Below the pieces are notes generated by a model. The model worked only from the letters and a program-made list of their open reading frames with translations. It was not told where the DNA came from and searched no databases. From Acidocella sp. (lineage in GTDB: Bacteria; Pseudomonadota; Alphaproteobacteria; Acetobacterales; Acetobacteraceae): a DNA stretch of 64,000 nt. The stretch covers positions 4,251-68,250 of the forward strand of contig NZ_DASXFO010000067.1 in assembly GCF_036489515.1 (NCBI RefSeq), given 5' to 3'. The first letter of the stretch is position 1. Every line of letters starts with the position of its first letter. The position numbers and the translations under genes were made by a program. Below are positions 1-46,690 of this stretch, in pieces.

Positions 1-1
1 G

Positions 2-136
2 CGCGTGCTGCGCGAGGCGATGCTGCGCATCGGCGAGCGCCTGCCGCCGGTCCGCCACGCGATGGTGGCAAAGCTGATGGAGAAGACCACCAAGCCGCGC
101 GGGCCTCTCGGAGAGAGGAAAGCGGCCGCTTTTTAA
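2..136 (+). CDS. 3' end of an unidentified protein-coding gene (partial; 5' part lies outside the window)
   Basis: The frame is open from the window edge with strong G/C third-position bias. It ends ...GERKAAAF-TAA (134-136). The last codons and the stop lie inside repeat copy 1. Confidence 0.45.
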   Translation, partial: RVLREAMLRIGERLPPVRHAMVAKLMEKTTKPRGPLGERKAAAF

Positions 137-257
137 AAAAAGCGGCGCAAAAATTTTTGGTTATGCTGGGTCGTGGGCGTTGGCGCCGACGACGCCCATG
201 GCCCCAGGAGCAAAAAACTACTTTTTGTTCACAAAAAGTAGGCTTCCTCTTTGCTTG
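117..257 (+). repeat. Mosaic three-palindrome intergenic repeat, copy 1 (full length A-B-C)
   Basis: GA-rich left end, then module A GAAAGCGGCCGCTTTTTAAAAAAAGCGGCGC. Module B is the hairpin GCTGGGTCGTGGGCG...CGCCCATGGCCCCAG. Module C is CTACTTTTTG-TTCA-CAAAAAGTAG, followed by a CT-rich right end. Confidence 0.9.
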
Positions 258-313
258 TCACGGGCCGGCCAGCCACGCTTTTTTCGGCGCGGCATTGGTG
301 GCATAGTTTGGGA

Positions 314-2353
314 ATGAAATTTTATTCCCTCTACGCTCAGGGGTTTGCCCGCGTGGCCGCCTGCACCACCGAGACGGCGCTGGCGGACCCCGCCCGCAAT
401 GCCGAAGCCGTGCTGGCGGCTGCCCGTGACTGCCATGAGCGCGGCGTGGCAGTGGCGGTTTTCCCGGAACTGACATTGTCGGGCTATTCCATCGAGGATC
501 TGCTGCTCCAGGACACGGTTCTGGACGCGGTGGAAGATGTCATTGCTGTCTTGGTGGCGGCGTCAAAAGAGCTGTTGCCCGTGCTGGTCGTGGGCGCGCC
601 GTTGCGCCATGCCGGCCGGCTCTACAACACGGCGCTCGTCATCCATCGCGGGCGCGTCCTGGGCGTCGTTCCGAAATCCTATCTGCCGACCTATCGGGAG
701 TTTTACGAAGGGCGGCAAATCGCGGCCGGCGACGACCTTCGCGGAGACATCACCGTCGGGGGCCAGGCCGTCCCGTTCGGCAACAACCTCATTTTCGCCG
801 CCGAGGATGTGCGCGGCCTCGCGTTGCATGTGGAGATCTGCGAGGATTTCTGGGTCCCGGTGCCGCCGAGCGCGCTCGCTGCTTTGGCCGGGGCGACCAT
901 CCTCGCGAATCTCTCCGGCAGCCCGATTACGATCGGTCGTGCCGAGAGCCGGCGGTTATTGGCGCAATCGGCCTCCATGCGCTGCCTCGCGGCCTATATC
1001 TACGCCGCGGCGGGCGCCGGGGAGAGCACGACGGAAGTCGCCTGGGATGGCCAGGTGATGATTTACGAAAACGGGGTCTGCCTGGCCGAGGCGGAACGTT
1101 TCCCCGAAGCGGGGCAATCGGTCATCGCCGATATCGACCTGGATCTGCTCCGCCAGGAACGGATGCGGATGGGGACCTTCGATGACAATCGCCGGACCCA
1201 TGTGGCGGCGGATGCGTTCCGCACCATCTCGTTCCGGCTGGCCCCGCCGATGGGCAATCTCGGTCTGCAACGCCGCGTCGAGCGCTTTCCCTTCGTGCCC
1301 TCCGACCCCGCGCGGCTGGAACAGGATTGCTTTGAGGCCTACAACATCCAGGTTTCCGGTCTGGTCCAAAGGCTCCGCGCGACCGGCCTCAAGCATGTGG
1401 TTCTGGGCATTTCCGGCGGCCTTGATTCAACCCATGCCTTGATCGTCGCGGCCCGCGCCATGGATCGGCTGGGCCTGCCGCGGCGCAATATTCTCACCTA
1501 CACCATGCCGGGCTTTGCCACCGGCGAAGACACCAAGGCCAATGCCTGGCGCCTGATGACCAGCCTCGGCACCAGCGCCAGCGAACTCGACATCCGCCCC
1601 GCCGCGCGGCAGATGCTGGCCGATCTCGGTCATCCTTTCGGTCAGGGGGAGCCGGTTTACGACATCACCTTCGAGAACGTGCAGGCGGGATTGCGGACCG
1701 ACTATCTGTTCCGCCTCGCCAACCAGAACAATGCCTTCGTCATCGGCACTGGCGACCTCTCCGAACTCGCACTCGGCTGGTGCACCTATGGCGTCGGCGA
1801 CCAGATGTCGCATTACGCCGTCAATGCCGGCGTCCCGAAAACGCTGATCCAGCATTTGATTCGCTGGGTGGCGCGCTCCGGTGGGTTCGGCGATGCGGTC
1901 GGCGCCACGCTCGAAGCGATTCTGGACACGGAAATTTCCCCCGAGCTCGTCCCGGTCGAGGCCGGCGCCACGCTGCAGAGCACGGAAGCGAAAATCGGCC
2001 CTTATGCGCTGCAGGATTTCAATTTGTACTACACGCTGCGCCACGGTTTCCGGCCTTCGAAAATCGCCTTTCTGGCTTTGCATGCCTGGGGCGACGTACA
2101 GGCCGGGGCCTGGCCGGCCCATTTTCCCGAAACGCGGCGGACGCAATACAGCCTTGGCGAGATCCGGAAATGGCTGGAGCTTTTCCTGCGGCGGTTCTTC
2201 GCCTTCAGCCAGTTCAAGCGCTCCGCCATGCCGAATGGCCCCAAAGTGGTTGCCGGCGGCTCGCTCTCCCCACGCGGCGACTGGCGCGCGCCTTCCGACG
2301 GCAACGCCACGGCCTGGCTCGATGAGTTGGCGCGCAACGTGCCGAAGGCGTAA
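314..2353 (+). CDS. nadE: Glutamine-dependent NAD+ synthetase (long form)
   Basis: N-terminal nitrilase-type glutaminase domain ([16 protein letters not shown] Cys motif). C-terminal NAD synthetase domain with PP-loop ISGGLDST. I chose the ATG at 314 because the upstream start at 251 lies in repeat sequence. Confidence 0.9.
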
Positions 2354-2397
2354 AGCGGCCGCTTTTTTGTTCACAAAAAGAAGCCTTCCCCTTCACT
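2352..2397 (+). repeat. Mosaic repeat, copy 2 (internal-deletion derivative: left half of A fused to right half of C)
   Basis: AAAGCGGCCGCTTTTTTGTTCACAAAAAGAAGCCTTCCCCTTCACT. The junction falls in the shared T-run. It lies between convergent nadE and the small minus-strand gene. Confidence 0.8.
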
Positions 2398-2430
2398 AAA
2401 ACGGCCCGGGGCGGCGCACCGTCCCGGGCT
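2397..2430 (-). terminator. Candidate intrinsic terminator of the small minus-strand gene
   Basis: On the minus strand, GCCCGGG-12 nt-CCCGGGC is followed by CGTTTTAG, about 20 nt after the stop at 2448. Confidence 0.45.
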
Positions 2431-2447
2431 TTGAGAAGGCGCCGGGT

Positions 2448-2645
2448 TCAGGAGCTCTTGGGGCCCTGATGGCCGGGTTTCCCGTGTTGCTCCTGACCAC
2501 CGCGCGTGCCAGGGGCGGTTTTTTCACGGTCGGCTTCGTTGCTCGCCGATTTTCCCGGAGGGTTGCTCGCCGGCTTGCGGCCCTGCTCGCCTGCTTTCCC
2601 TTGCTGTTCGTGAGAACGGCCGGGAGGTCCGCCCGTATTGGCCAT
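2448..2645 (-). CDS. Small hydrophilic Gly/Pro/Lys/Gln-rich protein (65 aa), function unknown
   Basis: The ATG is preceded by AAGAGGAGAGAAAC (strong SD about 6 nt upstream), and a terminator-like hairpin lies downstream. The low-complexity sequence resembles small stress-induced proteins, but I could not assign a family. Confidence 0.55.
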   Translation of the reverse strand: MANTGGPPGRSHEQQGKAGEQGRKPASNPPGKSASNEADREKTAPGTRGGQEQHGKPGHQGPKSS

Positions 2646-2761
2646 GTTTCTCTCCTCTTGATTGTTTTGAAAGACGCCATTTTTGGCTCAGTTGATATAC
2701 GCCATCCACAGGCGTCGTTTTCTCATTATTTGTTTAATTGGAATTCATCATGGTGGATGGA

Positions 2762-2866
2762 GGAAAGCGGCCGCTTTTTGAAAAAAGCGGCGCAAAAACT
2801 CCTTGTCCTCTGGGCCTGAGGCTGTGAAACCAGCACGGCTCCAAAGAAGCCTTCCTTATCTTACCT
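2762..2866 (+). repeat. Mosaic repeat, copy 3 (module A + alternative module B' + right terminus; no B or C hairpins)
   Basis: GGAAAGCGGCCGCTTTTTGAAAAAAGCGGCGCAAAAA, then CCTCTGGGCCTGAGGCTGTGAAACCAGCACGGCTCCAAAGAAGCCTTCC. The B' core GAAACCAGCACGGC recurs inverted at 28212-28262. Confidence 0.7.
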
Positions 2867-2948
2867 AACCGACACATGACGTTACGGAAATGTGGTGCGG
2901 TATCCGGCATTTCCGATCTAAACTCGTGCCAGATATGGAGCGTCGAAT

Positions 2949-4061
2949 ATGACCGCAGTCCGATTGCTGGTTGGCACCCGCAAAGGGGCGTTCATTCTCT
3001 CAAGCGACGATCGCGAGCGCTGGTCGGTCGCCGGTCCGTATTTTCCCGGTTGGGAGATTTTTCATCTCAAAGGATCGCCGATCAATCCGGATCGGATCTA
3101 TGCCTCCCAAAGTTCCGGCTGGTTCGGCCAGGTGATGCAACGTTCCGAGGATGGCGGTCAGACCTGGTCCGTGATCGACAATCGTTTTGCCTATGAGGGC
3201 GTGCCTGGAACCCACCAATGGTATGACGGCACGCCTCATCCCTGGGAGTTCCGGCGCGTCTGGCATATCGAGCCGTCTCTCTTCAGCGCCGATACGCTTT
3301 ATGCCGGTGTGGAAGATGCCGCCTTGTTCCAATCCGAGGATTCGGGCCAGTCCTGGCAGGAGGTTTCGGGCCTGCGGCGCCAGGATACAGGCCCGAACTG
3401 GATGCCAGGCGCTGGCGGCATGTGTCTGCACACGATCTTGCTGCACCCGACCGATCCGGCGCGGATTTTAGTCGCCATTTCGGCCGCGGGCGCGTTTCGG
3501 AGCGACGATGCCGGCCGGCGCTGGAAGCCGATCAATCACGGCTTGAATTCATCCCATCTGCCCGACCCGACCGCGGAGATCGGCCATTGCGTTCACCATA
3601 TCGCCATGCACCCATCCCGCCCGGACACGCTGTTCATGCAGAAACATTGGGATGTGATGCGGTCGGACGATGCGGGGGAGAACTGGCGGGAGATCAGCGG
3701 CGATCTGCCGACGGATTTCGGTTTCGTCATTGACGTTCATCCCCATGAGCCCGAAACGCTATACGTCGTACCGATCAAGAGCGATGCGGAGCATTTTCCC
3801 CCGGACGGAAAGCTGTGCGTGTATCGGAGCCGGAGCGGTGGTCATGAGTGGGAGCCGTTGACAGAGGGCCTCCCGCAACGGGATTGCTACGTCAATGTGC
3901 TGCGCGACGCCATGTCGGTCGATCGGCTGGATCCGGGCGGGGTGTATTTCGGCACGACGGGCGGGCAGATCTATGCCTCCGCGGATTCCGGCGACCATTG
4001 GCGCGCCATCGTCCGGGACCTGCCGGCGATCTTGTCGGTCGAGGCCCAGACGCTGCCATGA
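2949..4061 (+). CDS. BNR/Asp-box repeat beta-propeller protein (often annotated sialidase-like or Ycf48-like); cytoplasmic, function unknown
   Basis: Six Asp-box motifs (S-x-D-x-G-x-x-W): [48 protein letters not shown]. No signal peptide. Confidence 0.8.
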
Positions 4062-4369
4062 CCGCCACGATCCACGTGGAATTGCCCGCAAGCCTGCGGC
4101 AACTGGCGCAACTCAGTTTTGACACGGAGATCGACCTTGCCGTCATCGGCACGGCCAGTATTGGTGCCGTTCTCGAGAGTCTGGAGGCGCGCTATCCGGC
4201 GCTACGAGGCACAATGCGCGACCAGGACAGTAAGCGGCGGCGGCCCTTTATCCGTTTTTTCGCGTGCCAGAAGGATGTCTCGCATCAGGCTGCGGACGCG
4301 CCGCTCCCGCGTGCGGTCGCTGAAGGACGCGAACCATTCATCATCATCGGCGCCATCGCGGGAGGATGA
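4058..4369 (+). CDS. MoaD/ThiS-family ubiquitin-like small protein ending in Gly-Gly
   Basis: 103 aa, C-terminus ...GAIAGG-stop. The ATG overlaps the upstream stop (ATGA at 4058-4061). Confidence 0.7.
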
Positions 4370-4376
4370 AGCGGTA

Positions 4377-4522
4377 GGAAAGCAGCCGCTTTTTAAAAAA
4401 AGCGGCGCAAAAATTTTGCTCCGCTGGGTCACGGGCGTTGTCAGCGACAAGCCCGTGACCCAGCATCAATAAAGCTTTTTTTGCTTCTTTTTGTTCACAA
4501 AAAGAAGCCTTCCCCTTTTCTT
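4377..4522 (+). repeat. Mosaic repeat, copy 4 (full length)
   Basis: A-B-C architecture. The B stem is GGGTCACGGGC/GCCCGTGACCC and the C stem is GCTTCTTTTTG/CAAAAAGAAGC, both compensated variants. Confidence 0.9.
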
Positions 4523-4544
4523 GTCTGAGCGATATGGCAAACCA

Positions 4545-5198
4545 ATGCCCTGGACACGCGAACAGATGGCCGCGCGTGCGGCCCAAGAATTGAATGACGG
4601 CGACTACGTCAATCTGGGGATCGGCATCCCGACCCTGGTTGCCAATTACATACCGGACCATGTCGCGGTGACCTTGCAGAGCGAAAACGGCATGCTGGGG
4701 ATGGGCCCGTTTCCTGATCCGGCCGACGTCGATCCCGATCTCACCAACGCCGGAAAACAGACGATTTCTGCTCTTCCCACCTCGTCGTTCTTTTCCTCCG
4801 CCGAGAGTTTCGCCATGATTCGCGGCGGCCATATCGACCTTGCGATTCTCGGGGCGATGGAGGTTTCCGTAAAGGGCGATCTCGCGAACTGGGCCGTGCC
4901 TGGAAAATTCGTAAAAGGCATGGGGGGCGCGATGGATCTCGTCGCCGGGGTCAAACGCATCGTCGTGGTGATGGAACATACCTCGAGAGACGGCCACTCC
5001 AAGATCGTCGAAGAATGCAGCCTGCCACTGACCGGTGCGGGTGTGGTAGACTTGATCGTCACGGATCTCTGTGTGCTGGCCTGTGACAAGGTGAAGGGCG
5101 GTTTGACGCTGCGCGAGCTGGCACCGGGTGTGAGCCTTGATGAGGTAAGGCAGAAGACCGAAGCTGCCTTCAGGATAGAGGAAGCAGCCGCTTTTTGA
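4545..5198 (+). CDS. scoB: 3-oxoacid CoA-transferase, subunit B (no adjacent subunit A)
   Basis: N-terminus [16 protein letters not shown], catalytic-Glu motif LQSENG, and [15 protein letters not shown]. The last codons ...EEAAAF-TGA lie in repeat copy 5. Confidence 0.85.
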
Positions 5199-5322
5199 AA
5201 AAAGCGGCGCAAAAACTTTTACTATGCTGGGCCACGGGCGTTGTCCCCGACAAAGCCCATGGCCCAAATTAATAAAGTTTTTTTGCTACTTTTTGTTCAC
5301 AAAAAGTAGCCTTCTCTTACTC
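5180..5322 (+). repeat. Mosaic repeat, copy 5 (full length)
   Basis: A-B-C architecture. It fills the whole gap between convergent scoB and the ABC ATPase gene. Confidence 0.9.
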
Positions 5323-5323
5323 T

Positions 5324-6061
5324 CTACAGAATCTGACTAAGAAATGCCTGCGTTCGCGGATCGCGCGGGGCGGAAAAAAACTGCGCCGGCGGGGCGTGCT
5401 CGACGATCACGCCCCGATCCGTGAAATAGACCTCGTTTGCGACCTCGCGGGCGAAGCCCATTTCGTGGGTCACCAGGATGCAGGTCATGCCTTCTTCGGC
5501 GAGCTGGCGGATGGTCAGCAGAACTTCACCGACGGTTTCCGGATCGAGTGCGGCGGTTACTTCGTCGAAGAGCATCAGATCCGGCTTCATTGCGAGTGAC
5601 CGCGCGATGGCGACACGCTGTTGCTGCCCGCCGGAAAGCTCGCCCGGGTAGGCATGTTCCTTGCCCTCGAGACGAACTTTCTTGAGCAAGGCGTAGGCTT
5701 CCGCTTCGACCTCTTTTTTGGGACGCTTCAGCACCTGGATTGGCGCCATCATCACGTTCTGCAGCGCGGTTCGGTGCGGAAACAGATTGTACTGCTGGAA
5801 TACCATGCCGACATGCTTGCGCAGCTTCAGCTTGTCGAGCTTAGGGTCGTTCACCTCGATGCCCAACACCTTGATCGAGCCGATTTCGAACGGCACCAAC
5901 GCGTTGACGCAGCGGATCAAGGTCGATTTTCCGGATCCCGACGGGCCGATAATGCAGGCGACGTCGCCCTTCGAAACAGCAAGACTAACGCCCTTGATGA
6001 CTTCGACATGGCCGAATGATTTGTGCAGATTGTCGATGACGACGAGTGGTTCGGTGGTCAT
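5324..6061 (-). CDS. Polar amino-acid ABC transporter, ATP-binding protein
   Basis: Walker A GPSGSGKST, signature LSGGQQQRV, Walker B LMLFDE. The ATG at 6061 lies just after the upstream stop. Confidence 0.9.
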   Translation of the reverse strand: MTTEPLVVIDNLHKSFGHVEVIKGVSLAVSKGDVACIIGPSGSGKSTLIRCVNALVPFEIGSIKVLGIEVNDPKLDKLKLRKHVGMVFQQYNLFPHRTALQNVMMAPIQVLKRPKKEVEAEAYALLKKVRLEGKEHAYPGELSGGQQQRVAIARSLAMKPDLMLFDEVTAALDPETVGEVLLTIRQLAEEGMTCILVTHEMGFAREVANEVYFTDRGVIVEHAPPAQFFSAPRDPRTQAFLSQIL

Positions 6062-6062
6062 G

Positions 6063-6911
6063 TCAGTTCCGTACCTGATAGCGGCGTTCAAGGCGTTGGG
6101 TCGCCCATGCGATGGGATAGGTATAGATGAAGAACATCAGCAAGACATAGGCGTAGATGGGCGCCAGCAGGTTGGGCCGGCTGCCTTCCGCCGCCAGGAC
6201 CTGGCCGGCCAGCGTCACCACCTCGTTCACGCCGACGATCGAGGCGAGTGTCGTCGAGGTGGTGAGGATGGCGTAAAGGTTCATCCACGGCGGCAGCATG
6301 CGTTTCACGCTCTGCGGCAGGATGATCAGCCATAGTTGCTGTCGCCTCGTGAAGCCGAGTGATTCGGCGGCTTCCCATTGGCCGGGAGGGATCGAGAGCA
6401 CCCCGCCGCGCACGATCTCCGCGACGTTGGCCATGACCGGTAGAGCGAGGCCGATCACCGCCTTCAGCCAGCCCGGGAGGCTGATGGTGTGCGACCCGAC
6501 ATGGATCTGGAAGGGCAGCAGAAAGATCATGAAAAACAGCAGGACCAGCCAGGGGGCATTGCGGAAGAACTGGGTCAGCAGCCAGGACATCGCGCGGGTC
6601 GGCCGGGATGGTGTGATCAGTCCGAGGCCGAGAAACGCCCCCAGGACCGTTCCGATGGCCATGGAGAGGAAGCTGATGAGTATGTTCAGCCCGAAACCGC
6701 GCAACAGCAGGGGGGTCCAGTTTGCGAGGACGGCCAGCACGCCGGCCTGCGTGGCCTGTCCCGTTGCGGCATCGGCGGCAGCCGACGAGAAGAGGATAAT
6801 GGCCGCCAACACGATGCCATGCCAGGGGGCCAGCCGTAGCGTCGGCAGACCGCCCGGCTGGCGTTGCAAAGTCGCATTCAGTGGCAGGATGACGGGAAAT
6901 TTCGCGCTCAT
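6063..6911 (-). CDS. Amino-acid ABC transporter permease
   Basis: Multi-TM protein with EAA-loop EAAESLGFTRRQ. The start overlaps the upstream stop (ATGA). Confidence 0.85.
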   Translation of the reverse strand: MSAKFPVILPLNATLQRQPGGLPTLRLAPWHGIVLAAIILFSSAAADAATGQATQAGVLAVLANWTPLLLRGFGLNILISFLSMAIGTVLGAFLGLGLITPSRPTRAMSWLLTQFFRNAPWLVLLFFMIFLLPFQIHVGSHTISLPGWLKAVIGLALPVMANVAEIVRGGVLSIPPGQWEAAESLGFTRRQQLWLIILPQSVKRMLPPWMNLYAILTTSTTLASIVGVNEVVTLAGQVLAAEGSRPNLLAPIYAYVLLMFFIYTYPIAWATQRLERRYQVRN

Positions 6912-7663
6912 GTTCCGAGACCCGGTCGACGCAAGGCGCGCTCCCATGCGTGCATCGCGAAAACCAGAATGCCCACCAAGGCGATATAGATCACGAACAG
7001 GACGAGCATCATCTCGGGCACATTCTCATTGTCCGACCAGATCTGGTTGGACACATAGAGAAGTTCGGGAACGGCGATGGCATAAGCGAGCGTCGTGGTC
7101 TTGACCAGATTGACGAGGTTGTTGGTGAGTGCTGGCAGGCAGATGCGCAAAGCGAGTGGCAATGTCACCTGAATGTAAGTCTGCAGCCGCGTAAAGCCGA
7201 GTGATTCGGCCGCCTCGGTCGTGGCGGTCGGAATCGCCTCGATGCCGGAGCGAAAAATTTCCACATTGAACGATCCGGCAAAGCAGATCAGCGACAGGCA
7301 GGCCCAGGCGAAACCGTTGATCAGCGGCTCCTCGAAGCCCACGCCGTTTCTCATTTTGGGGAGTAGCGCGCTTAACCCGAAATAGAAAAAATACATTTGC
7401 ACAAGCGGGGGCGTGTTGCGGAACAGCTGGATGTAGCCCTCAACGAGCCACCGTATCCATCCTTGCCGCGACATCTGTCCCCAGGCGCCGACGATGCCCA
7501 GCAGCACTGAGCCGACGATGGTGACGCCGGACAGCTCCAGCGTCACCCAAAACCCATTCAGAAACCGCGCGCGATCGTAGGGATCATAGAAAATCGTGAA
7601 GTTGACGCCGGTAGTGTCGTTAAGATGCGAAAACCAGTTAGCGATGGCGAGACCCGGCGTCAC
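6908..7663 (-). CDS. Amino-acid ABC transporter permease
   Basis: Multi-TM protein with EAA-loop EAAESLGFTRLQ. GTG start with AAGGA upstream. Confidence 0.85.
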   Translation of the reverse strand: MTPGLAIANWFSHLNDTTGVNFTIFYDPYDRARFLNGFWVTLELSGVTIVGSVLLGIVGAWGQMSRQGWIRWLVEGYIQLFRNTPPLVQMYFFYFGLSALLPKMRNGVGFEEPLINGFAWACLSLICFAGSFNVEIFRSGIEAIPTATTEAAESLGFTRLQTYIQVTLPLALRICLPALTNNLVNLVKTTTLAYAIAVPELLYVSNQIWSDNENVPEMMLVLFVIYIALVGILVFAMHAWERALRRPGLGT

Positions 7664-7684
7664 TCTCTTTTCCTTCGAGACGCG

Positions 7685-8497
7685 TTAGGATTTGTATTTG
7701 TCGTGCTGTTGCACGGCATAGGCAGAGTGGGGGATCCCATACTTCGTTTCTAGGGAGAGGATATATCCGGTCTTTTCCCAATCCTCGCTTGCCTTGGAAA
7801 CGAAAGCGGCGAAAGCGGGCTCGCCGTTCTTGACGGCCATGCCCCAGGGCACCGCGCCGAGAGTGGGCAGCGGCATATCATAGGCTTTCCAGGTCGGATC
7901 CGTCAGTTTTCCTGCGATCGCAGTGTCATCGTAGAGGAACGCGTTGCAGCGGCCTTGTTGCAGGGCGGTCAGAGCTTCGGCCACGCCGGTGAAGGCGACC
8001 AGCTCAGCGCCATATTTCTCGCCGACGTCCTTGTTGTAGAAGGAACCTTGAATGGCGCAGACCGGCATCCCTTTCAGAGCGTCCCAGCTCGTTAGTTTCA
8101 CGGTCTTCGGGACCATCACGTTATAGCCGGACGCGTAGTAGTTAGGGTGAATGATATCGACGATTTTTTCTCGTTCCGGCGTATCGTTCATCGTCGCGAT
8201 CAGCAGATTGATTTTGCCTTGCTGCAGGAACTGGATTCGATTCGCTGCGACCACGGGGACGAATTGCACTTTCACGCCGAGACGCTGCGCCAGATTGCGC
8301 GCGAGGTCGGGTTCGATGCCGATGCTCGCCCCGGTCGGGCTCAGATAGCCGAACGGCGGATAGTCGGCTTTAACTCCCACCACCAGGACACCGCTGGACT
8401 TGATGTCCTGAAGTTCATCGGCCCGCGCCATGTTTGGCCCGAAGACGACCATCGCGCCAACCAGCAATCCCAGACAAGCCACTTTGTTTTGAATCAT
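7685..8497 (-). CDS. Amino-acid ABC transporter substrate-binding protein (family 3)
   Basis: N-terminal signal peptide (...FGPNMARA) and a periplasmic-binding fold sequence pattern. It is the first gene of the minus-strand ABC operon. Confidence 0.85.
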   Translation of the reverse strand: MIQNKVACLGLLVGAMVVFGPNMARADELQDIKSSGVLVVGVKADYPPFGYLSPTGASIGIEPDLARNLAQRLGVKVQFVPVVAANRIQFLQQGKINLLIATMNDTPEREKIVDIIHPNYYASGYNVMVPKTVKLTSWDALKGMPVCAIQGSFYNKDVGEKYGAELVAFTGVAEALTALQQGRCNAFLYDDTAIAGKLTDPTWKAYDMPLPTLGAVPWGMAVKNGEPAFAAFVSKASEDWEKTGYILSLETKYGIPHSAYAVQQHDKYKS

Positions 8498-8889
8498 AGG
8501 CCACCCTCCCTTATGAACACCCCTGAAATGATGGGGTCGACGACGACGTAAGGCTTTCGACTCTCATGATTCCATGGTGCCTAGTTTGGCGGCGTGTGGC
8601 AAGGATTGCCTTCATAACGCCCACCAAAAACAAAATTTTGAGACGATTACTCGAAAAAGTACGAAATTATCGTTATTTTCGGTTGTTGTGAGACGGAGTA
8701 GAAACGAAAAAACCATCCGTGCTCAATATTTAAGCGCCCGCACGGGAGGCATTCTGGCACCTACGGGGCGAGGTAAAGTGCCGTGGACATGGGTGGTAGC
8801 CGTACGTTTGGTTCCTAGATATGCAGCGTCGGGTTCGCGCGGGCAAAGTGCCCGTGCGAGCCCATGACTTTGTGAGTGAAGGAATTGCA

Positions 8890-9750
8890 ATGAACACCAG
8901 TCATCCAGCTCTGGCGGCCGGACGTGTCGCCGTCATCACCGGTGCGGCGAATGGCATCGGCCTCGCGGCCGCCAAGCGCTTTGCTTCCATGGGTATGAAA
9001 ATCGTCATGGCGGACCTGGCGTCAGAGGCCCTGCAGCTTGCGGCGCACGAAGTTGCGGCGGTGCAGCCGAACGGTCAGGCCGAGGTTCTGGTGGTCGCGA
9101 CCGATGTCAGCGATCTCGGCCAGGTCCAGGCGCTGGCGGACGCCGCTTACAGTCGCTTCGGTGAAGTGGCCGTGCTGATGAACAATGCGGGGATCGGTAA
9201 CGGCGGCGGGCCGTGGGAGCATATCGATCGTTGGCGGAAGGTCCTGGAGGTCAATCTGTGGGGCGTCATCAACGGCGTGCAGACATTCGCGCCGCGGATG
9301 CTGGCGCAAAAGACCGCCGGCGCCATCATCAATACCGGTTCGAAGCAGGGGATCACCTGCCCGCCGGGCAATACCGCCTATAACGTCAGCAAGGCCGGGG
9401 TGAAGGTGATGACCGAAGCTTTGGCGCATAGCCTGCGGAATGAGGCGGGCGCCCACATCTCCGCGCATCTGCTGATCCCGGGCTCGACCTTTACGGAAAT
9501 GACCCGCGCGGGTCTGACCGGCAAGGAAAGCACGGCCTGGACCGCGGATCAGGTGATCGACATGCTGGTGACAGAGATGGCGGCGGGCACGTTCTACATC
9601 CTCTGCCCCGATAACGAGGTGACACGCGATGTGGATAACCGCCGTATCCTCTGGGCCGCGCAGGACGTGATCAAAGGACGTCCGGCATTGTCGCGCTGGC
9701 ACGCTGACTACAAGGATGAGTTTCAGCGGTTTTTGAACGCCGATAAGTAA
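8890..9750 (+). CDS. Short-chain dehydrogenase/reductase
   Basis: ITGAANGIGLA (TGxxxGxG) and YNVSKAG (YxxxK). Confidence 0.85.
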   Translation: MNTSHPALAAGRVAVITGAANGIGLAAAKRFASMGMKIVMADLASEALQLAAHEVAAVQPNGQAEVLVVATDVSDLGQVQALADAAYSRFGEVAVLMNNAGIGNGGGPWEHIDRWRKVLEVNLWGVINGVQTFAPRMLAQKTAGAIINTGSKQGITCPPGNTAYNVSKAGVKVMTEALAHSLRNEAGAHISAHLLIPGSTFTEMTRAGLTGKESTAWTADQVIDMLVTEMAAGTFYILCPDNEVTRDVDNRRILWAAQDVIKGRPALSRWHADYKDEFQRFLNADK

Positions 9751-9889
9751 AAGAAAGTAGCCGCTTTTTAAAAAAAGCGGCGCAAAAACCTTTGCTAATG
9801 CTGGGCCATGGGCTTTGTCGGGGACAACGCCCATGGCTCAGGAGCAGAAAACTACTTTTTGTTCACAAAAAGTAGCCTTCCCTTCACTA
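9751..9889 (+). repeat. Mosaic repeat, copy 6 (full length)
   Basis: A-B-C architecture with the GAAAGTAGCCGC variant of A. The right terminus ...CCTTCACTA contains the pqiC stop codon (minus strand). Confidence 0.9.
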
Positions 9890-10474
9890 TTCTTGGAGGG
9901 CCGCCTGCGCCACGCCGGCAGCGATCTGATCGGCGGCGGACGCCCATAAAGCGCTCATGGCGGCGACAACATCGGGTGCCGTGGCGCCGGAGGCGAGCGT
10001 GCGGTTGATGGTCTGCACGCTCAGCAATGTATGGCCAGCGCCGGCTTTCAGGGCCACCTGCATGGTCAGTTCGACGGCGCCCACGGACGGATCAAAACGC
10101 AGCACGTTGATTTCGACCTGCAAATCGGACGGCATTTCGATGGAGCCGCCGCTGTCGATGACGGTGGCGCCGTTCAAGCGCTGCGCCAGATCTTCGACCA
10201 TCGTCGTTTGCAGCGTGTCGGCGAATGGACCGGCCCAGACGGAGTTGGGGAATGAACCGGCTTCGAAGCGGCTGACCGGCGTGGGGACGTTGCCCTGGTC
10301 GAGATAGGCAGGGATGCTGATCCGGCGGACGCTGATGGTGAGGGGCGCGACGTGCTCGATCGGCCCCGGCTCACTCGCCAACCGGTATTGTGTCACCGGC
10401 GCCGAGGTGCAGGCCGCGGTGAGGGCGGTCACCATGAAGGCGGCGATGGCACGGATCGATCGAGCCCGGTTCAT
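9887..10474 (-). CDS. pqiC: PqiC-type ABC-transport auxiliary lipoprotein
   Basis: Lipobox LTAAC. It follows pqiB with an ATGA overlap. Confidence 0.75.
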   Translation of the reverse strand: MNRARSIRAIAAFMVTALTAACTSAPVTQYRLASEPGPIEHVAPLTISVRRISIPAYLDQGNVPTPVSRFEAGSFPNSVWAGPFADTLQTTMVEDLAQRLNGATVIDSGGSIEMPSDLQVEINVLRFDPSVGAVELTMQVALKAGAGHTLLSVQTINRTLASGATAPDVVAAMSALWASAADQIAAGVAQAALQE

Positions 10475-12078
10475 TGGTTGCCCCGTCCCAGAAGCAACGC
10501 CTGAGGGTGGCGGTTCAGATAGTCCGCCAGCATCCTGATGGAACGCAGAGTGTCGTTTGCCTCATTCATGAGTTGGTCCAGGTTGCGTTGGAAATCTGAA
10601 TCGTTGCCGTAGGTTTGCGTCACCGTCTGCAGCGTGCCGTTCGCATTGCGCAGCGTCTTGTTGAGTTCCGTCAGGCTTTGTCCGATTTGCGGATTGGACA
10701 GTGTGCCGTTAGCCGTGGTCAGCAGCTTGTTGAGGTTGTTGCTGAGCTGATCGAAGGGCACTTTCGACAGATTGTTGGAGATGCTGGCGAGGGAATTGAT
10801 GATGTCGTCGAGTCCGCCGGACTGGCTGGGAATGACCAGGGCATCACCTTCTTTGGTGATCTTTGTCGGTTTGGCGCCGGCGATCCAGGCAAACGTAATC
10901 TCTTTCTGGCCGGTGACGTAGCTGACGGTGTCGAGCTGCGCGCGCAGGCCTTGATCGACCATTTTCTGGAGAACCTGGTCAGGACTTAGGGTCTTGGGGA
11001 ATTGTCCGGCCTCCAGAACGCGTTCCGGCTGGATCTCCATGAACACCCTGGCCTTGGCTGTGCCGGCGTAGGGATCGATGATGAGCTTGACGCTTTGCAC
11101 CACGCCGATCTGGATGCCGAGAACATCGACTGGTGCGCCGTGTGCCAGGCCCGCGACGGAGCTGGTGAAGTAGGAAACAACCGGAATTTGGTTCTGGTAG
11201 CCGGCGGATTTGGCGTCGTCGTGGGAGTCGAACAGGGGAAACACGGCGTTGTCGGGGCTGGGCGCGCTGCCCCTGCCTTCAAGTGGCAGATCGAAGGTCA
11301 CGCCTCCCGAGATGATGGCTTGCAAGGACTGAAATTCGATATGGAAGCCGCCGTTCTGAAATTGGGCGGTGATCCCGGACGATTTCCAGAAATGACTTTG
11401 TGGACGAATCAGATGGTCGAAGGGCGCTCGGACAAAAATATCCACGGTGACCGGGCCGAGACCGTTCCCGATATCATATCCAAGCACTTCGCCAACGACG
11501 ATGTCACGGTAGAAGACGGGCGAGCCGGCGGCCAACGAGCCGATGGTTTCGGTTTTCAGCTGGTAGGTTTGGCCCGGCTCGTCGGAGCGCACACCAGGGG
11601 GGCCTTCCAGGCCGGTAAAATGGTCTTGGTATTGGCCACCGGGCAGCCCCGGGTCGACGGCGATATAGGCGCCGGAGACGAGCGTCTCGAGGCCCGATAT
11701 GTTGCTGGCGCTAAAATTGGGCCGCACGACCCAGAACCGGGCATGGGAGGTGAGGAAGCGCCTGCCGATATCGTTCATGCGCACCCGGACCACCACCTGG
11801 CTGTTGTCGCTGCTGAGATCGACGCTTTCCACGGTGCCGAGGGCGACGGCCTTGTACTTGACCTGCGTCTGACCGGCCGTAATGCCTTCGCCGCTGGTAA
11901 AGGTGACGGTTAGCAGTGGCCCCTGTTCAAGAAGCGTTCGATACCCCAGATAAACGGCAATGACCGCGGCAATGAGCGGTACCAGCCAGACAAGGGAAAA
12001 GCGCGGGCGACGCACATGCGCGGGCGGCGGACTTTGCGGGGGCGGCGCGTTGCTGGTGGCGGGAGCGTCGACAGGCAT
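10471..12078 (-). CDS. pqiB: PqiB (MCE/MlaD-domain intermembrane transport protein)
   Basis: N-terminal TM segment followed by repeated MCE-like segments. I chose the ATG at 12078, just after the pqiA stop. Confidence 0.8.
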   Translation of the reverse strand: MPVDAPATSNAPPPQSPPPAHVRRPRFSLVWLVPLIAAVIAVYLGYRTLLEQGPLLTVTFTSGEGITAGQTQVKYKAVALGTVESVDLSSDNSQVVVRVRMNDIGRRFLTSHARFWVVRPNFSASNISGLETLVSGAYIAVDPGLPGGQYQDHFTGLEGPPGVRSDEPGQTYQLKTETIGSLAAGSPVFYRDIVVGEVLGYDIGNGLGPVTVDIFVRAPFDHLIRPQSHFWKSSGITAQFQNGGFHIEFQSLQAIISGGVTFDLPLEGRGSAPSPDNAVFPLFDSHDDAKSAGYQNQIPVVSYFTSSVAGLAHGAPVDVLGIQIGVVQSVKLIIDPYAGTAKARVFMEIQPERVLEAGQFPKTLSPDQVLQKMVDQGLRAQLDTVSYVTGQKEITFAWIAGAKPTKITKEGDALVIPSQSGGLDDIINSLASISNNLSKVPFDQLSNNLNKLLTTANGTLSNPQIGQSLTELNKTLRNANGTLQTVTQTYGNDSDFQRNLDQLMNEANDTLRSIRMLADYLNRHPQALLLGRGNQ

Positions 12079-12079
12079 T

Positions 12080-13408
12080 TTACGGGGTTCCGGGTTCCAG
12101 ATCGCGCGCGTGATGGGCATGGATTTGTGGTGCTTCGGCCGCGTCCCACATTAGACGCGGGTCGAAGGTGGAAACGGCGAACATCGTCAGCACGACGACG
12201 GCGGCAAAGCACGCGGCGCCCACTTCGGCGCGTACATAGGCGATTTCGCCGAAATGCACGAGTGCGACCAGAATCGATATCATGAAGACGTCAATCATTG
12301 ACCAGCGGCCGATGAATTCCACGATTTTGAAAGCATGGGTCCGGCCGACCAGGCGGCTGCTGCTGCCGGCCTGGGTGAGGATGAGCATGTATGCCAGGGA
12401 TATGAGCTTGGCGAGGGGAATGACCATGCTGGCAAAAAACACCAGAAGTGCCAGCGGCCATAGGCCATAACTCTCAAGTTCAACGATGCCGCCCATGATG
12501 GTGAAGGAATGGGAAGTTTCCAGCTGGGTAATCAGCATGACCGGGTAGATGTTCGCGGGCATGTAAAGGAGGGCTGCGGCGATCATCAGAGCCCAGCTGC
12601 GGCTGATGCTATAAGGCTTGCGATGGTGCAGGATTTCCTCGCAGCGGTGGCATCGTTCACCGGGATGGGCATGGTTGACCATGCCGCAGGCATGGCAGCC
12701 GATGTACGTGAAAGCCGGTCGATCGGCAGGCTGACGCGCAACATTTTCCGGGGCGGAAGGGCTGTCAGCCTCATGCAAGGCGCGCCAGACGGCCTCCTTG
12801 TCGAGGGCGGCATCGGCGGCGGCCATGGAGATCATCAAGCCGATGAGAAGATAAACTGCGGTGTCGAGATGAACCGTGGCGATGGCGGTGAGGCGCGTAT
12901 AAGCGACCAGAAACCCGAGGAGATAGACATCGATCATGGCCCAGGGAGCGACCGTTCCGTAGAAACGAAAGATCCTTTTGAGCACGCGGGGCGCCACAAA
13001 CCGGGTCTCCAGTCCAATCAGCGTGACCAGCATGATGCCAAGCTTGAGGCCGGGAAATATGACGGTGACGGCCAGGACGAGCAGGCCGACATTGGAGAAG
13101 TGCTGCAGGATCAGGCGCACAGGGCCGGTTTCAAGAAAGGCGAGTTGAAATCGCCCATACACCGAGATCTCCAGAAACGGCGCCACCAGCGCGAATATAT
13201 AAAACAGCAGGGCCGCAAGACCGCAGGCAAGAGGAAATTCAAACGGGACTCTCCGCATGCGCCACAAGGTATAATGACAGCGTGGGCAATCCGCGACCAG
13301 GCCCGGACGCATGTCCGGGAGGACCGAAAACAGGCCGCATCTTGGGCATTCCCGCCAAGCCTCGGTCGGTGATCCACAGGTCAATGTCGCCACGCCGGAA
13401 CCGGGCAT
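12080..13408 (-). CDS. pqiA: PqiA (paraquat-inducible protein A family)
   Basis: Two zinc-finger-like CxxC pairs (CPRC...CPRC and CHAC...CHRC), each followed by TM blocks. Confidence 0.8.
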   Translation of the reverse strand: MPGSGVATLTCGSPTEAWRECPRCGLFSVLPDMRPGLVADCPRCHYTLWRMRRVPFEFPLACGLAALLFYIFALVAPFLEISVYGRFQLAFLETGPVRLILQHFSNVGLLVLAVTVIFPGLKLGIMLVTLIGLETRFVAPRVLKRIFRFYGTVAPWAMIDVYLLGFLVAYTRLTAIATVHLDTAVYLLIGLMISMAAADAALDKEAVWRALHEADSPSAPENVARQPADRPAFTYIGCHACGMVNHAHPGERCHRCEEILHHRKPYSISRSWALMIAAALLYMPANIYPVMLITQLETSHSFTIMGGIVELESYGLWPLALLVFFASMVIPLAKLISLAYMLILTQAGSSSRLVGRTHAFKIVEFIGRWSMIDVFMISILVALVHFGEIAYVRAEVGAACFAAVVVLTMFAVSTFDPRLMWDAAEAPQIHAHHARDLEPGTP

Positions 13409-13636
13409 TACAAAGTGTGGTCTTGAGGGCTTGTCATTGCTTCGCCGGGGAAGGCGGCAACAGATGACTCGTTGCGCTGCGGAAATTCAGTGATTTACCC
13501 TTTCGATCAAGCTTCTGTGTCATGGTTCCGTGCAGATTTAGGCGATATGCTTTTCAGTCTGCAAGTCATGGGCGCTGGCGCCGACACGAGCGGCCGGGGC
13601 CGAGTCCCTTTTTACAGGATATGGGGAGCCGGAAGC

Positions 13637-14464
13637 TCAAAACCCCGTGCTTTTCAAAAGGGCGGGGAGCAGGTGAGAGTGAAGAATCATTTGCACGGCG
13701 GCGGACAGGATAAAAATCAGGACGATTGCACGGAAGATCGCGGGTGGTAAGGCGTCCCGGAGAGGCCGGCCTAATTGAATGCCGATCACGACGGGGATGG
13801 CTGCGAGTGCCGAAAACAACAGATCAGCTCCGCTGGCGTGGCGTGATTGCCCGAAAGTGAGGATCAGGGCCGCGATAGAGATGATTAGGACAAGGGCGAT
13901 CTGCTTGGTGAACTGCTTGCCCGTCGCACCTGTGGCCAACAGATAGGTCGCCAACAGCGGTCCGGGAATCGCGGAAATACCTTCCATCAGGCCACAAACA
14001 AACCCGACCACAAGACCGACCGGGCCTGCGGTCCGTTTGGGGAGTTTGAATTTTGGGGTGACCAGCAGCACCAGGCAGGCTGTGAGGAGGATGAGGCCGG
14101 CAAGGCCGACCGCAAGATGCCCCGGGATGCTGAGGAGAATTTTGACACCCAGCGCAATGCCGATGACGGTGCCGATCACGAGAAAGCCGATATGTTTGAG
14201 CGTCTTCCAGGTATGTCCGCCCTCGAAAGCCTGAGGGACATTGCCGATCATGATCGGCAATGAGAGCAGGAGCACCGCCTGTTTTACCGACAGAATGCCC
14301 GTCAGGAGCGGGAGGGCGACAAGCGGTACGCCAATGCTGACCACGCCCTTCACCAGCCCACCCACCAAAAGTGTACAAATGAGGATGAGCCACTCACGGG
14401 TCGAAAGAGCCTGCAAAGTCGGCCAGAGGAGACTGTGAGGGAAGGTAAGGTGAAACAGCGACAT
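13637..14464 (-). CDS. TauE/SafE-family anion exporter membrane protein
   Basis: 275 aa polytopic, Gly-rich hydrophobic protein with a two-half repeat pattern. Confidence 0.6.
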   Translation of the reverse strand: MSLFHLTFPHSLLWPTLQALSTREWLILICTLLVGGLVKGVVSIGVPLVALPLLTGILSVKQAVLLLSLPIMIGNVPQAFEGGHTWKTLKHIGFLVIGTVIGIALGVKILLSIPGHLAVGLAGLILLTACLVLLVTPKFKLPKRTAGPVGLVVGFVCGLMEGISAIPGPLLATYLLATGATGKQFTKQIALVLIISIAALILTFGQSRHASGADLLFSALAAIPVVIGIQLGRPLRDALPPAIFRAIVLIFILSAAVQMILHSHLLPALLKSTGF

Positions 14465-14514
14465 GGCGGTCGTGTAACGTTTGCCAGACGTATCGGCAAT
14501 GTAGGCTGGAAAAA

Positions 14515-14660
14515 GGAAGCAGCCGCTTTTTAAAAAAAGCGGCGCAAAAACTTCTTCTATGCTGGGCCATGGTCATTGTCGGCGACAACGCCCATGGCCC
14601 CAAGTTAACAAAGTTTTTTTGCTTCTTTTGGTTCACAAAAAGAAGTCTTTCCTCTTGCTT
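14515..14660 (+). repeat. Mosaic repeat, copy 7 (full length, slightly degenerate)
   Basis: A-B-C architecture. It lies between tandem minus-strand genes. Confidence 0.85.
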
Positions 14661-15796: not shown

Positions 15797-15952
15797 GGGA
15801 GAGAGGAAAGCGGCCGCTTTTTAAAAAAAGCGCCGCAAAAATTTTTATTGTGCTGGGCCATGGGCGATGTGACCGACAACGCCCATGGCCCAGCATAAAT
15901 AAAGTTTTTTTGCTTCTTTTTGTTCACAAAAAGAAGCCTTCCCCTTCGCTTC
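15797..15952 (+). repeat. Mosaic repeat, copy 8 (full length)
   Basis: A-B-C architecture with the GGGAGAGAGG left terminus also seen in copy 1. It lies in the divergent promoter region between the ADH gene and mmsA. Confidence 0.9.
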
Positions 15953-17584: not shown

Positions 17585-17733
17585 GGAAGCGGAGCAGAAG
17601 ACTTCTTTTTGTGAACAAAAAGAAGCAAAAAAACTTTATTAATTTGGGCCATGGGCATTGTCGGTGACAACGCCCATGGCCCAGCATCGTAAAAATTTTT
17701 GCGCCGCTTTTTTTAAAAAGCGGCCGCTTTCTA
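17585..17733 (-). repeat. Mosaic repeat, copy 9 (full length, inverted)
   Basis: C-B-A order on the plus strand. It lies between convergent mmsA and the LysR gene. Confidence 0.9.
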
Positions 17734-26387: not shown

Positions 26388-27161
26388 ATGGGTCATGAAA
26401 CATTGCTTCTTACCCAAGAGGCGGCGGTCACGGTGGTTCAGCTCAACCGCCCGCAGGCGCTGAATGCGCTGAACAGCCAGGTGCTTCAGGAACTCGGGGA
26501 AGTCTTTTCCGAATACGAGCGCGATCCTAGCAAGCGCTGCCTGATTTTAACCGGCAACGAAAAAGCCTTCGCCGCGGGCGCCGATATCAAGGAGATGCAA
26601 CCGAAGGGCTTCGCCGCCATGTACGGTGAAAATTTCTTTGCCGGCTTCGAGCGCATCACCGCGACCCGGAAGCCGTGGTTTGCGTCGGTTGCCGGATTCG
26701 CCCTGGGCGGCGGGTGCGAACTGGCGATGATGGCGGATTTCATCATCGCGGCCGATACCGCGAAATTCGGCCAGCCCGAGATCAAATTGGGGATTGGGCC
26801 AGGGATGGGGGGCTCGCAACGTCTCACCCGGGCGGTCGGCAAGGCAAAGGCGATGGAGATGTGCCTGACCGGGCGGATGATGGAGGCTGAGGAAGCTGAG
26901 CGGTGCGGCTTGGTCGCCCGGATTGTCCCAGCCAGCCAGTTGCATGAAGAAGCGTTGAAGACGGCGCAAACCATCGCCGGGATGCCGCCGCTTGGGGCGA
27001 TGGCGGTTAAGGAAATGGTGAACGCGGCCTTTGAAACCGGCCTGGCTCAAGGATTGCTGTTTGAGCGGCGTCTGTTCAACGGCCTGTGCGCCACGGCAGA
27101 CAAGGCGGAAGGAATGTCCGCCTTTATGGAAAAGCGCAAGGCGGTGTGGCAGGGGCGTTAG
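26388..27161 (+). CDS. Enoyl-CoA hydratase (crotonase family)
   Basis: FAAGADIKEM and GGGCELAMMAD motifs. ATG at 26388. Confidence 0.85.
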   Translation: MGHETLLLTQEAAVTVVQLNRPQALNALNSQVLQELGEVFSEYERDPSKRCLILTGNEKAFAAGADIKEMQPKGFAAMYGENFFAGFERITATRKPWFASVAGFALGGGCELAMMADFIIAADTAKFGQPEIKLGIGPGMGGSQRLTRAVGKAKAMEMCLTGRMMEAEEAERCGLVARIVPASQLHEEALKTAQTIAGMPPLGAMAVKEMVNAAFETGLAQGLLFERRLFNGLCATADKAEGMSAFMEKRKAVWQGR

Positions 27162-27310
27162 AAAGCGGCCGCTTTTTGAAAAAAGCGGCGCAAAAACTTT
27201 TGGCTATGCTGGGTCATGGGCGTTGTCACCGACCACGTCCATGACCCAGCATGGCAAAGTTTTTTTGCTACTTTTTGTTCACAAAAAGTAGCCTTCCCCT
27301 TCACTTACTT
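27159..27310 (+). repeat. Mosaic repeat, copy 10 (full length)
   Basis: A-B-C architecture. It begins at the hydratase TAG stop, and the B stem is GGGTCATGG/CCATGACCC. Confidence 0.9.
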
Positions 27311-28331: not shown

Positions 28332-28369
28332 GGCAAGCAGCCGCTTTTTTTAAAAAGCGGCTGCTTGCC
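28332..28369. repeat. Module-A-type perfect palindrome between convergent genes (possible bidirectional terminator)
   Basis: GGCAAGCAGCCGCTTTTT-TT-AAAAAGCGGCTGCTTGCC, with 18-bp perfect arms. It lies 5 nt from the coxG-like stop. Confidence 0.7.
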
Positions 28370-28373
28370 TTCT

Positions 28374-43431: not shown

Positions 43432-46301
<2,870 letters not shown>

Positions 46302-46302
<1 letters not shown>

Positions 46303-46679: not shown

Positions 46680-46690
46680 AACGAGTCCTT

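Follow-up and report, generated by a model that had tools for sequence, protein, structure and literature searches.

The bases at positions 4423-4508 form two hairpins, B and C, whose stems recur elsewhere in the 64-kb window, the whole stretch of DNA analysed here, with substitutions in both arms that leave them complementary. The question raised by this locus is whether pairing is what is being maintained, as an earlier note on this DNA proposed, or whether the paired changes mark clonal subfamilies that are explained by copying, which the same note named as the result that would speak against its proposal. All of the sequences quoted in that note are present where it placed them, and the bases 4423-4508 are non-coding, in agreement with its statement that no coding frame is involved.

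Architecture of the element

The bases 4423-4508 are hairpins B and C of one repeat copy, which spans 4376-4514 on the plus strand and belongs to an element of ~140 nt. The element features, in order, AAGN repeats, hairpin A, an A-tract, hairpin B, a T-tract, hairpin C, and NCTT repeats. The purine-rich left end carries two to four AAGN repeats, and the right end is pyrimidine-rich (from CTTCC onward in the focal copy). Hairpins A and C are A/T-rich, and C is related to A in inverted orientation. Hairpin B is G+C-rich, long, and variable in sequence between copies of the element. Its stem had been taken as 10 bp, but it is actually ~20 bp, or 25 bp including the A/U-rich base, and it is closed by a loop of 3 nt. 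The loops are T5(A/G)A7 in hairpin A, NNN in hairpin B, and TTCA in hairpin C. Hairpin B is flanked by C-A5-7-CTTTT on one side and by AAAG-T7-G on the other, and these flanks are mirror images that are near-invariant family-wide. The architecture, the A-tract, the T-tract, and hairpin C are conserved throughout the family, whereas the A stem and the whole B module vary among genome groups.

The element is quasi-palindromic, in that its left third and right third are inverted relatives, and terminal inverted repeats are present between the left 40 nt and the right 40 nt. The family model scores 60-75 bits against its own reverse complement versus ~150 bits in the forward sense. Folding of the whole element gives a closed four-way junction on either strand (z-scores −9 to −12). 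The purine-rich left flank and the pyrimidine-rich right flank do not pair in a copy-specific manner (6.27 versus 6.34 in permutations), and the closing stem is therefore a family-level inverted repeat rather than a covarying helix.

The focal copy (4376-4514) was matched by nhmmer to model positions 2-140 with 135.8 bits in the A-B-C orientation. It sits between co-directional genes, with the upstream stop TGA at 4367-4369 and the next start at 4545 according to JGI gene calls, and all of its parts are on the plus strand. Hairpin A at 4382-4408 reads GCAGCCGC TTTTTAAAAAAA GCGGCGC, that is GCAGCCGC-T5A7-GCGGCGC, and was determined from the consensus fold, the RNA fold, and the stem haplotypes of the family; its stem consists of GCCGC/GCGGC with a T5/A5 extension and has one bulged purine in the 5' arm. 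The left linker (AAAAATTTT, 4409-4417) and the right linker are reverse complements, and their pairing lengthens the base of hairpin B. Hairpin B at 4423-4464 is of the window's own type (B1), has the loop AGC, and features a 1-nt deletion in the 3' arm. It carries the doubly compensated variant GGGTCACGGG...CCCGTGACCC, in which GGGTCACGGG is 4426-4435 and CCCGTGACCC is 4452-4461 within the full stem GCTGGG...CCCAGC (4423-4464). The right linker at 4471-4482, AAAGC followed by T7, provides the T-tract after the extended B hairpin and is near-invariant across the family. Hairpin C at 4483-4508 has the GCTTC/GAAGC allele, GCTTCTTTTTG TTCA CAAAAAGAAGC.

Copies in the window

A profile search determined that the window holds 21 non-overlapping copies of the element, or ~1 copy per 3 kb. 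Sixteen are full length and five are partial (one solo hairpin A, one A/C hybrid, and three truncated copies). The orientations are mixed, with 14 plus and 7 minus among the 21 HMM hits, and the spacing is irregular. All 21 copies are intergenic or overlap gene ends by 20 nt at most. The C-hairpin pattern has 18 matches in the window versus 0 expected by chance. Ordinary chromosomal genes border the copies, encoding NAD synthase, CoA transferase, ABC transporters, and aldehyde dehydrogenase and including the glycine cleavage operon, as confirmed by independent JGI gene calls and Pfam matches. An integron attC array was considered and rejected on the mixed orientations, the irregular spacing, and the housekeeping neighbours.

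Nine of the 11 convergent gaps in the window hold a copy, which usually fills the gap. The full copy at 5179-5316 (plus) fills the gap between the genes of a CoA transferase (stop 5198, inside the element) and an ABC-transporter ATPase (stop 5324). Full copies at 9751-9882 (plus), 41743-41877 (plus), and 49480-49616 (minus) are likewise bordered by convergent genes, with stops at 9750 and 9887, 41737 and 41885, and 49471 and 49617, respectively. The full copy at 17596-17732 (minus) lies between an aldehyde dehydrogenase gene and a LysR-type regulator gene, and that at 38199-38338 (minus) has the stop of the minus-strand gene (38318) within the element. A full, near-consensus copy at 54003-54141 (minus) separates the genes of an OsmC-family protein and a LysR-type regulator, and the TAG stop of the latter (54132-54134, in GTAGCC) is located in the 5' arm of hairpin A. 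The full copy at 57739-57884 (plus), between the genes of a ferritin and a PQQ-dependent dehydrogenase, features a 7-nt tandem duplication in the 5' arm of B, and a solo hairpin A occupies a convergent gap at 28340-28370 (minus).

Seven window copies are between co-directional genes and three are in divergent gaps. The former include the focal copy, a full copy between two minus-strand genes at 14513-14652 (plus), and a full copy at 52116-52256 (minus); the latter include a full copy at 15804-15943 (plus) and a partial copy with B and C and no A at 48053-48142 (minus), which adjoins a glycine riboswitch. The two aptamers of this riboswitch are the only Rfam hits in the window. The element itself has no Rfam family match at the gathering score in the window, where it gives sub-threshold generic hairpin (miRNA-precursor) hits only.

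The other full copies are at 116-248 (plus), where an upstream ORF ends with a TAA at 134-136 inside the loop of hairpin A, at 27160-27298 (plus), which also contains a stop (27161), and at 33694-33832 (plus), which is the top match to the family model. The copy at 34852-34968 (plus) lacks the loop and 3' arm of hairpin A and the left linker. The other remnants are a hybrid at 2364-2390 (plus) that joins hairpin A's 5' arm to the 3' half of C, a hairpin A with a variant B 5' arm at 2761-2831 (plus), and a degenerate copy spanning B and C at 34084-34158 (minus).

Pairing in the window

The form GGGCCATGGG/CCCATGGCCC of the B stem had been assigned to most copies. It is the commonest form, yet copies that match it exactly in both arms number only ~6 of 17. 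The variant GGGTCATGGG/CCCATGACCC was confirmed in two further copies, those at 27160-27298 and 52116-52256. The two forms of hairpin C were recovered as CTAC/GTAG in 12 window copies, which agrees with the earlier count, and as CTTC/GAAG in five copies and not four, the copy at 14621 having been missed. Within the window the outermost C pair resembled G-C/G.U covariation, but family-wide it is unconstrained, with C, A, T, and G all occurring. The B loop is variable, but it does not differ in almost every copy, as there are 10 triplets among 17 copies with ACC found four times and GGC three times. The two arms change together in the cited variants, but half-changed copies are found at 217 (T.G and G.T wobble pairs in the copy at 116-248), 5285 (C/A), 38205 (C/A), and 41849 (G/A).

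In the 15 full copies of the window used for statistics, 97% of the cells are paired, and there are 9 double-changed cells versus 3.8 in shuffles (0/500). The pairs changed on both sides (3 versus 2.5 in shuffles, 236/500) and the extra pair types (14 versus 14.0) are not significant. The 20-bp B core, tested in 26 distinct copies of the type found in the window, gave 4 pairs versus 3.4 (242/500) and nothing significant; uncompensated cells number 77 and compensated cells 7. On the measures that are robust to relatedness, covariation is flat for the window and the B core, but it is significant for an enlarged B set.

The family and its stems

The window is 100% identical to two contigs of the JGI metagenome 3300036790, Ga0376660_0000069 of 338 kb and Ga0376660_0001391 of 57 kb, and extension of the source contig via its edge proteins added 13 kb with 5 more B-carrying copies. 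The closest named relative is an Acidocella MAG that is syntenic with ~80% nucleotide identity. One genome per species was scanned for the C hairpin with its covarying pair left free, which gave at least 113 loci, and among the matches listed all are from Acetobacteraceae/Rhodospirillales MAGs. A scan of metagenomes with a half-B pattern contributed only 9 loci to the set. In total, over 217 copies were collected, of which 123 are full length, and the family occurs in more than 30 Acetobacteraceae/Rhodospirillales assemblies. A plasmid search gave no match, and literature searches for the motif and for Acetobacteraceae repeats returned no description of the element.

Comparison across these genomes revealed nine distinct, fully complementary stems in the inner four pairs of hairpin A. 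These are CCGC, GTTC, GCGC, CTTC, CTGC, GCTC, GTGC, CTCC, and GTCC, each with its exact complement, and at least 8 double changes are needed to connect them. Several of these stems coexist in one assembly, including four in JBEPTZ. Watson-Crick cells make up 93% of hairpin A, a share that falls to 71% after shuffling of the 3' arms between copies and to 28-30% in slid pairings. Hairpin C features four complementary variants, CTTC/GAAG, CTAC/GTAG, CTGC/GCAG, and GTTC/GAAC. B modules of unrelated sequence form a single hairpin in 93 of 100 copies, with z below −2 in 68.

The window's B type was analysed again in an enlarged set of 33 copies and 25 pairs, which includes the A/U-rich base and five more copies from the same genome and leaves out chimeric and indel-bearing copies. 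In this set 11 of the 25 pairs are changed on both sides versus 7.7 in shuffles (3/500), and there are 31 extra pair types versus 25 (0/500); with slid pairing as a control, the values are 3-9 pairs and 13-19 types. With more copies, more compensated B variants appear, such as GGGCTATGGG/CCCATAGCCC and AACCTGGG/CCCAGGTT.

Paired changes among the copies of one genome are weak evidence, and it was the cross-genome comparison that decided the pairing question. The A stems, the B modules, and the enlarged B set, rather than the window examples, show that stem pairing is maintained across the family while the sequence changes. The earlier proposal of maintained pairing thus holds family-wide, but it does not follow from the examples that were cited for it, for which the window covariation is within what chance and relatedness produce. 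Pairing is not strictly enforced in every copy, because ~12 copies have a chimeric B with at least 5 mismatches and, at two positions of the B stem, between a third and half of the copies lack a pair. Overall ~14% of the B cells are mismatched, and the B stems are ~85-90% paired while the loop varies freely.

Exchange and mobility

The A-T and T-A alleles of hairpin C coexist in six related genomes, and the more distant genomes have T-A only. The C allele is unlinked to the B type, the linker variant, the A-loop variant, the 3' flank, and the genome. The most economical reading is that the C swap is one old event that was reshuffled by recombination. Orthologous copies in the loci L049 and L036 differ in hairpin A (GGCGC/GCGCC versus GCCGC/GCGGC) and in hairpin C (GTAG versus GAAG), and between those in L083 and L095 the B type differs, as does the outer pair of hairpin A (T-A versus C-G). 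B arms are also found as chimeras of two types. Because orthologous copies bear different alleles, the variants move among copies as whole hairpins, and copy descent together with conversion therefore explains the joint arm changes in the cited cases. For the cited cases this comes close to the outcome that the earlier note named as speaking against its proposal, and the general conclusion of maintained pairing stands. On the simplest account, compensated stem variants would arise rarely and in limited number, and copy descent together with recombination or conversion between copies, in tracts that span the whole hairpin, would spread and reshuffle them. This would also be why the arms seem to change together in the window.

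The region of the window that is syntenic with Acidocella MAG L020 shows that copies are gained, lost, and flipped between species. Two of the three copies there (14513-14652 and 15804-15943) are absent from the orthologous sites of L020, and the third (17596-17732) is present in the opposite orientation, with a 54-nt insert in B in the L020 copy. No target-site duplication was found, as the filled and empty sites that were compared (the window versus L020 and L090 versus L038) have replaced, diverged spacers; two other apparent empty sites were discarded as spurious alignments. No autonomous insertion sequence with the ends of the element was seen in the sampled loci, and to our knowledge there is no parent insertion sequence for it.

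Position and proposed function

Gap occupancy over all loci is 41% for convergent, 17% for tandem, and 7% for divergent gaps. The median distance from the stop codon to the start of the element is 5.5 nt in convergent and 8 nt in tandem gaps, and the end of the element is ~40 nt upstream of the next start. No bias of orientation relative to transcription was found (20 versus 32, p = 0.13). Orientation, position, and reading direction spoke against readings of the element as a small-RNA gene or a Shine-Dalgarno donor.

The A-tract and the T-tract mirror each other, and RNA from either strand therefore features a long hairpin between an A-tract and a U-tract, as in a two-way intrinsic terminator. 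This layout and the placement just after stop codons make a 3'-end role the best-supported function. Judged from position and sequence, the likeliest role would be that of a bidirectional terminator and/or mRNA stabiliser. The element may persist by forming hairpins at mRNA 3' ends on either strand, where B and its two flanking tracts would terminate transcription in both directions and/or stop 3' exonucleases, and A and C would serve as the inverted ends of the element. The lack of orientation bias and of asymmetry between G.T and A.C mismatches, which are equally common (16 versus 18), fit a function on two strands, although a constraint at the DNA level predicts the same mismatch symmetry. 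The equal frequencies do not distinguish an RNA hairpin from a DNA cruciform, or one strand from the other. Some features fit a terminator less well. The T-run is 9-10 nt past the perfect G+C-rich B stem and abuts only a weak, bulged A/U-rich lower stem, and hairpin B, unlike A and C, was not called by a simple terminator scan. A selfish repeat that is merely tolerated at 3' ends would be enriched there as well.

Taken together, we hold with moderate confidence that this is a dispersed intergenic repeat of the REP/BIME/MITE class that is kept as a hairpin-forming module of mRNA 3' ends, with variants spread by descent and conversion. A bolder version, which we regard as doubtful, is that a self-propagating two-way terminator cassette took the place of the usual terminators at most gene ends of one Acetobacteraceae clade. 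The cassette would insert after stop codons, sometimes donating the stop, and would move in a hairpin-dependent manner by a putative enzyme.

Alternative explanations

The paired changes may instead reflect mutational symmetry without selection, either through hairpin-templated strand switching (quasi-palindrome correction) or through a symmetric hotspot such as deamination of methylated C in GGCC. The C swap is consistent with this, as no A/A or T/T intermediates were found in ~120 copies. So is the variable B pair 7 (C-G to T-A), for which 43 copies include 5 with T-A (two genomes), 3 with T.G, 4 with C.A, and 2 with G.A, so that half-changed copies are at least as frequent as the T-A variant. 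On both strands pair 7 falls on the inner C of GGCC, and the observed changes are all of the C-to-T type, and a symmetric C-to-T hotspot is therefore a possible cause. GGCC has an observed/expected ratio of 0.84, and this depletion is too mild for the methylation hotspot to be adopted, although it is retained as a rival. A hotspot also cannot account for the transversion swaps in A and C or for the unrelated B modules. Strand-switching correction is not efficient here, given the persistence of chimeric arms and of mismatches in B. Mutational symmetry is accordingly considered unlikely.

A comparably low probability is given to the proposal that single-stranded DNA hairpins are recognised by a putative HUH/tyrosine transposase (RAYT or IS200/IS605-like), such that only paired variants proliferate and the 3'-end role is secondary. 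Insertion polymorphism and orientation flips between species, the conserved bulged base in hairpin A, and the full pairing of each stem variant, as if propagation requires pairing, agree with it. Transposases of this kind act on one strand, and the mismatches show no strand asymmetry. A tblastn search of 0.97 Mb of loci with RAYT and IS608 TnpA queries found nothing below E = 0.9, which is a weak test. GTAG, which tags many REPs (PMC3733652), is present in one C allele, but this GTAG sits within the stem and the widespread C allele is GAAG.

Pure copy descent, with young copies whose paired changes are neutral subfamily markers under no selection for pairing, fares worse still and is given little credence. 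It agrees with the flat window and B-core tests, with the 77 to 7 ratio in the B core, and with C alleles and a B T-A variant that are shared between genomes. At the level of the family it is already largely refuted, because the nine complementary A stems, four of them in JBEPTZ, require repeated double changes, B modules without sequence similarity are still hairpins, the extended B stem is significant on both the pair and the pair-type counts, and loops vary while stems do not. Palindromes that are bound in double-stranded form by a dimeric protein, for instance a nucleoid protein or a recombinase, with half-sites changing symmetrically to fit it, are very improbable, since a single protein would not need several symmetric A-stem variants in one genome and B forms a hairpin without any conserved sequence, even though A and C are A/T-rich inverted repeats with A-tracts and C has the highest sequence conservation of the modules.

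Comparison with known repeats

The favoured reading, a repeat kept as a 3'-end hairpin module, has precedents, and the element is best filed in the REP/BIME/MITE class of bacterial repeats as a new family for which no earlier description was found. REP and BIME elements are extragenic palindromes of 3' UTRs and convergent gaps that have been proposed as terminators and mRNA stabilisers (PMC3184786; bioRxiv 10.64898/2026.03.23.713779), and for E. coli REPs both termination and protection from 3' exonucleases have been proposed (bioRxiv 10.64898/2026.03.23.713779). Like the REP, BIME, and REPIN repeats of enterobacteria and pseudomonads, the element is a short, extragenic, high-copy mosaic of hairpin modules in which stems are kept by compensatory change and modules recombine (the B chimeras, the A/C hybrid, and the solo A). 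Unlike these repeats, with which it has no sequence similarity, it is a fixed three-hairpin composite of 140 nt with A/T-rich side hairpins. REPs carry a GTAG/CGTC tag (PMC3733652), whereas the element has no conserved GTAG/CGTC foot, GTAG being limited to one C allele and located inside the stem. No RAYT gene was found in the 0.97 Mb sampled, in the weak test described above.

SPRITE is a dispersed ~100-nt repeat with an intrinsic-terminator-like fold for which termination and 3' exonuclease protection have also been proposed (PMC3184786). It resembles the element in this fold and differs in phylum, in sequence, and in having a single terminator-like hairpin, whereas the core of the element is symmetric (A-tract, hairpin, T-tract) and is flanked by two more hairpins. 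BOX of S. pneumoniae shares a modular A-B-C arrangement with inverted-related end modules and a variable middle (PMC3184786). Its sequence is unrelated, boxB varies in copy number while the single B of the element varies in type, and the location bias differs.

The bacterial MITEs Correia/NEMIS, ERIC, and bcr1 are similar in their size of 100-160 bp, in having terminal inverted repeats and long stem-loop transcripts, and in insertion polymorphism between relatives, and bcr1 shows compensatory changes (PMC3184786, PMC2229807). In contrast to MITEs, the element is without a demonstrable target-site duplication or TA termini, and each of its terminal repeats is itself a hairpin. The CIR/RIME repeats of alpha-proteobacteria are ~110-bp intergenic repeats with hairpin arms joined by linkers, and CIRs are defined by a conserved GANTC methylation site in the loop (PMC2229807). 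Relative to these repeats, the element features three hairpins instead of two, and GANTC (GAGTC/GACTC) occurs only in some B flanks and is not conserved.

Implications

The element stands out for its density, its placement directly after stop codons, and its symmetric terminator-like core. At ~1 copy per 3 kb there could be roughly a thousand copies per genome. The family model can improve annotation of 3' ends, of false small ORFs (such as 2469-2819), and of stop codons donated by the repeat, and it also marks the lineage in metagenomes. If the elements end or stabilise transcripts, one mobile, recombining repeat would supply most of the gene-end signals in this group. If so, this would explain differences in gene-end structure between species, and Acidocella-like bacteria would be a natural system for the takeover of a housekeeping role by a repeat.

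Hairpin B variation

The middle hairpin of the repeat, hairpin B, varies in a manner that involves both its loop and its arms. The 3-nt B loops in the window and in alignments A2 and A3 include triplets that are reverse complements of each other, which form the pairs GGC/GCC, AGC/GCT, CCC/GGG, and ACC/GGT. The same set of sequences holds an asymmetric variant of B, in which one arm reads GCTGTGTC and the other GACAACGC; relative to hairpins A and C, this variant is found both ways round. The paired loop triplets together with the two orientations of the arm variant suggest that the B hairpin flips inside the element. Hairpin B also carries length changes. In the copy at 57739-57884, the B 5' arm has the 7-nt stretch GGGCGTT twice in tandem (57797-57810), and the copy at 6280-6472 of L020, a syntenic locus from an Acidocella MAG, contains a 54-nt, partly palindromic insert within the B 3' arm. 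The L020 copy is the ortholog of the window copy at 17596-17732 and lies in the opposite orientation.

Element ends and decay products

Each end of the element is built from 2-4 degenerate copies of a tetranucleotide, which is AAGN at the left end and NCTT at the right end (e.g. 4370-4384 and 4509-4523). No copy-by-copy covariation was found between the AAGN left and NCTT right ends, and their complementarity exists at the family level only. Decay of the repeat has left three products: a hybrid remnant that joins the A 5' arm to the C 3' half (2364-2390), a solo hairpin A (28340-28370), and a copy that has lost its left linker along with the loop and 3' arm of hairpin A (34852-34968). The deletions behind these products appear to have occurred between T and A runs.

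Sequence context

A partial copy of the repeat (48053-48142) is located just past a tandem glycine riboswitch on the minus strand (47789-47980), whose two aptamers score 69.6 and 45.7 bits; downstream of the riboswitch is the gcvT-gcvH-gcvP operon (46691-47743, 46302-46694, and 43432-46305). Across the whole window CTAG is strongly depleted (16 observed vs 47 expected) and AATT is in excess with a ratio of 1.5, which is partly due to the A5T5 linkers of the repeat. Parts of the window are matched with 100% identity by two distinct contigs from JGI metagenome 3300036790, both of which continue beyond it: Ga0376660_0001391 over 1-14061 and Ga0376660_0000069 over 39154-64000. It follows that the window was taken from another assembly of this organism, either a different one or one in which the contigs are joined.

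Stop codons supplied by the repeat

The left end of the element often contains stop codons in two or more reading frames, e.g. TAAGTAAGTAGCC. A JGI-called gene of 116 amino acids without a Pfam match (2469-2819, plus strand) extends into the partial repeat at 2761-2831; either the call is spurious or, possibly, the repeat has changed where a gene ends. Several flanking ORFs terminate within the repeat (134-136, 5196-5198, 27159-27161, 38318-38320, and 54132-54134), where they use either the TAA in the loop of hairpin A or the TAG of GTAGCC, and the element therefore provides the final few codons and the stop of these ORFs.
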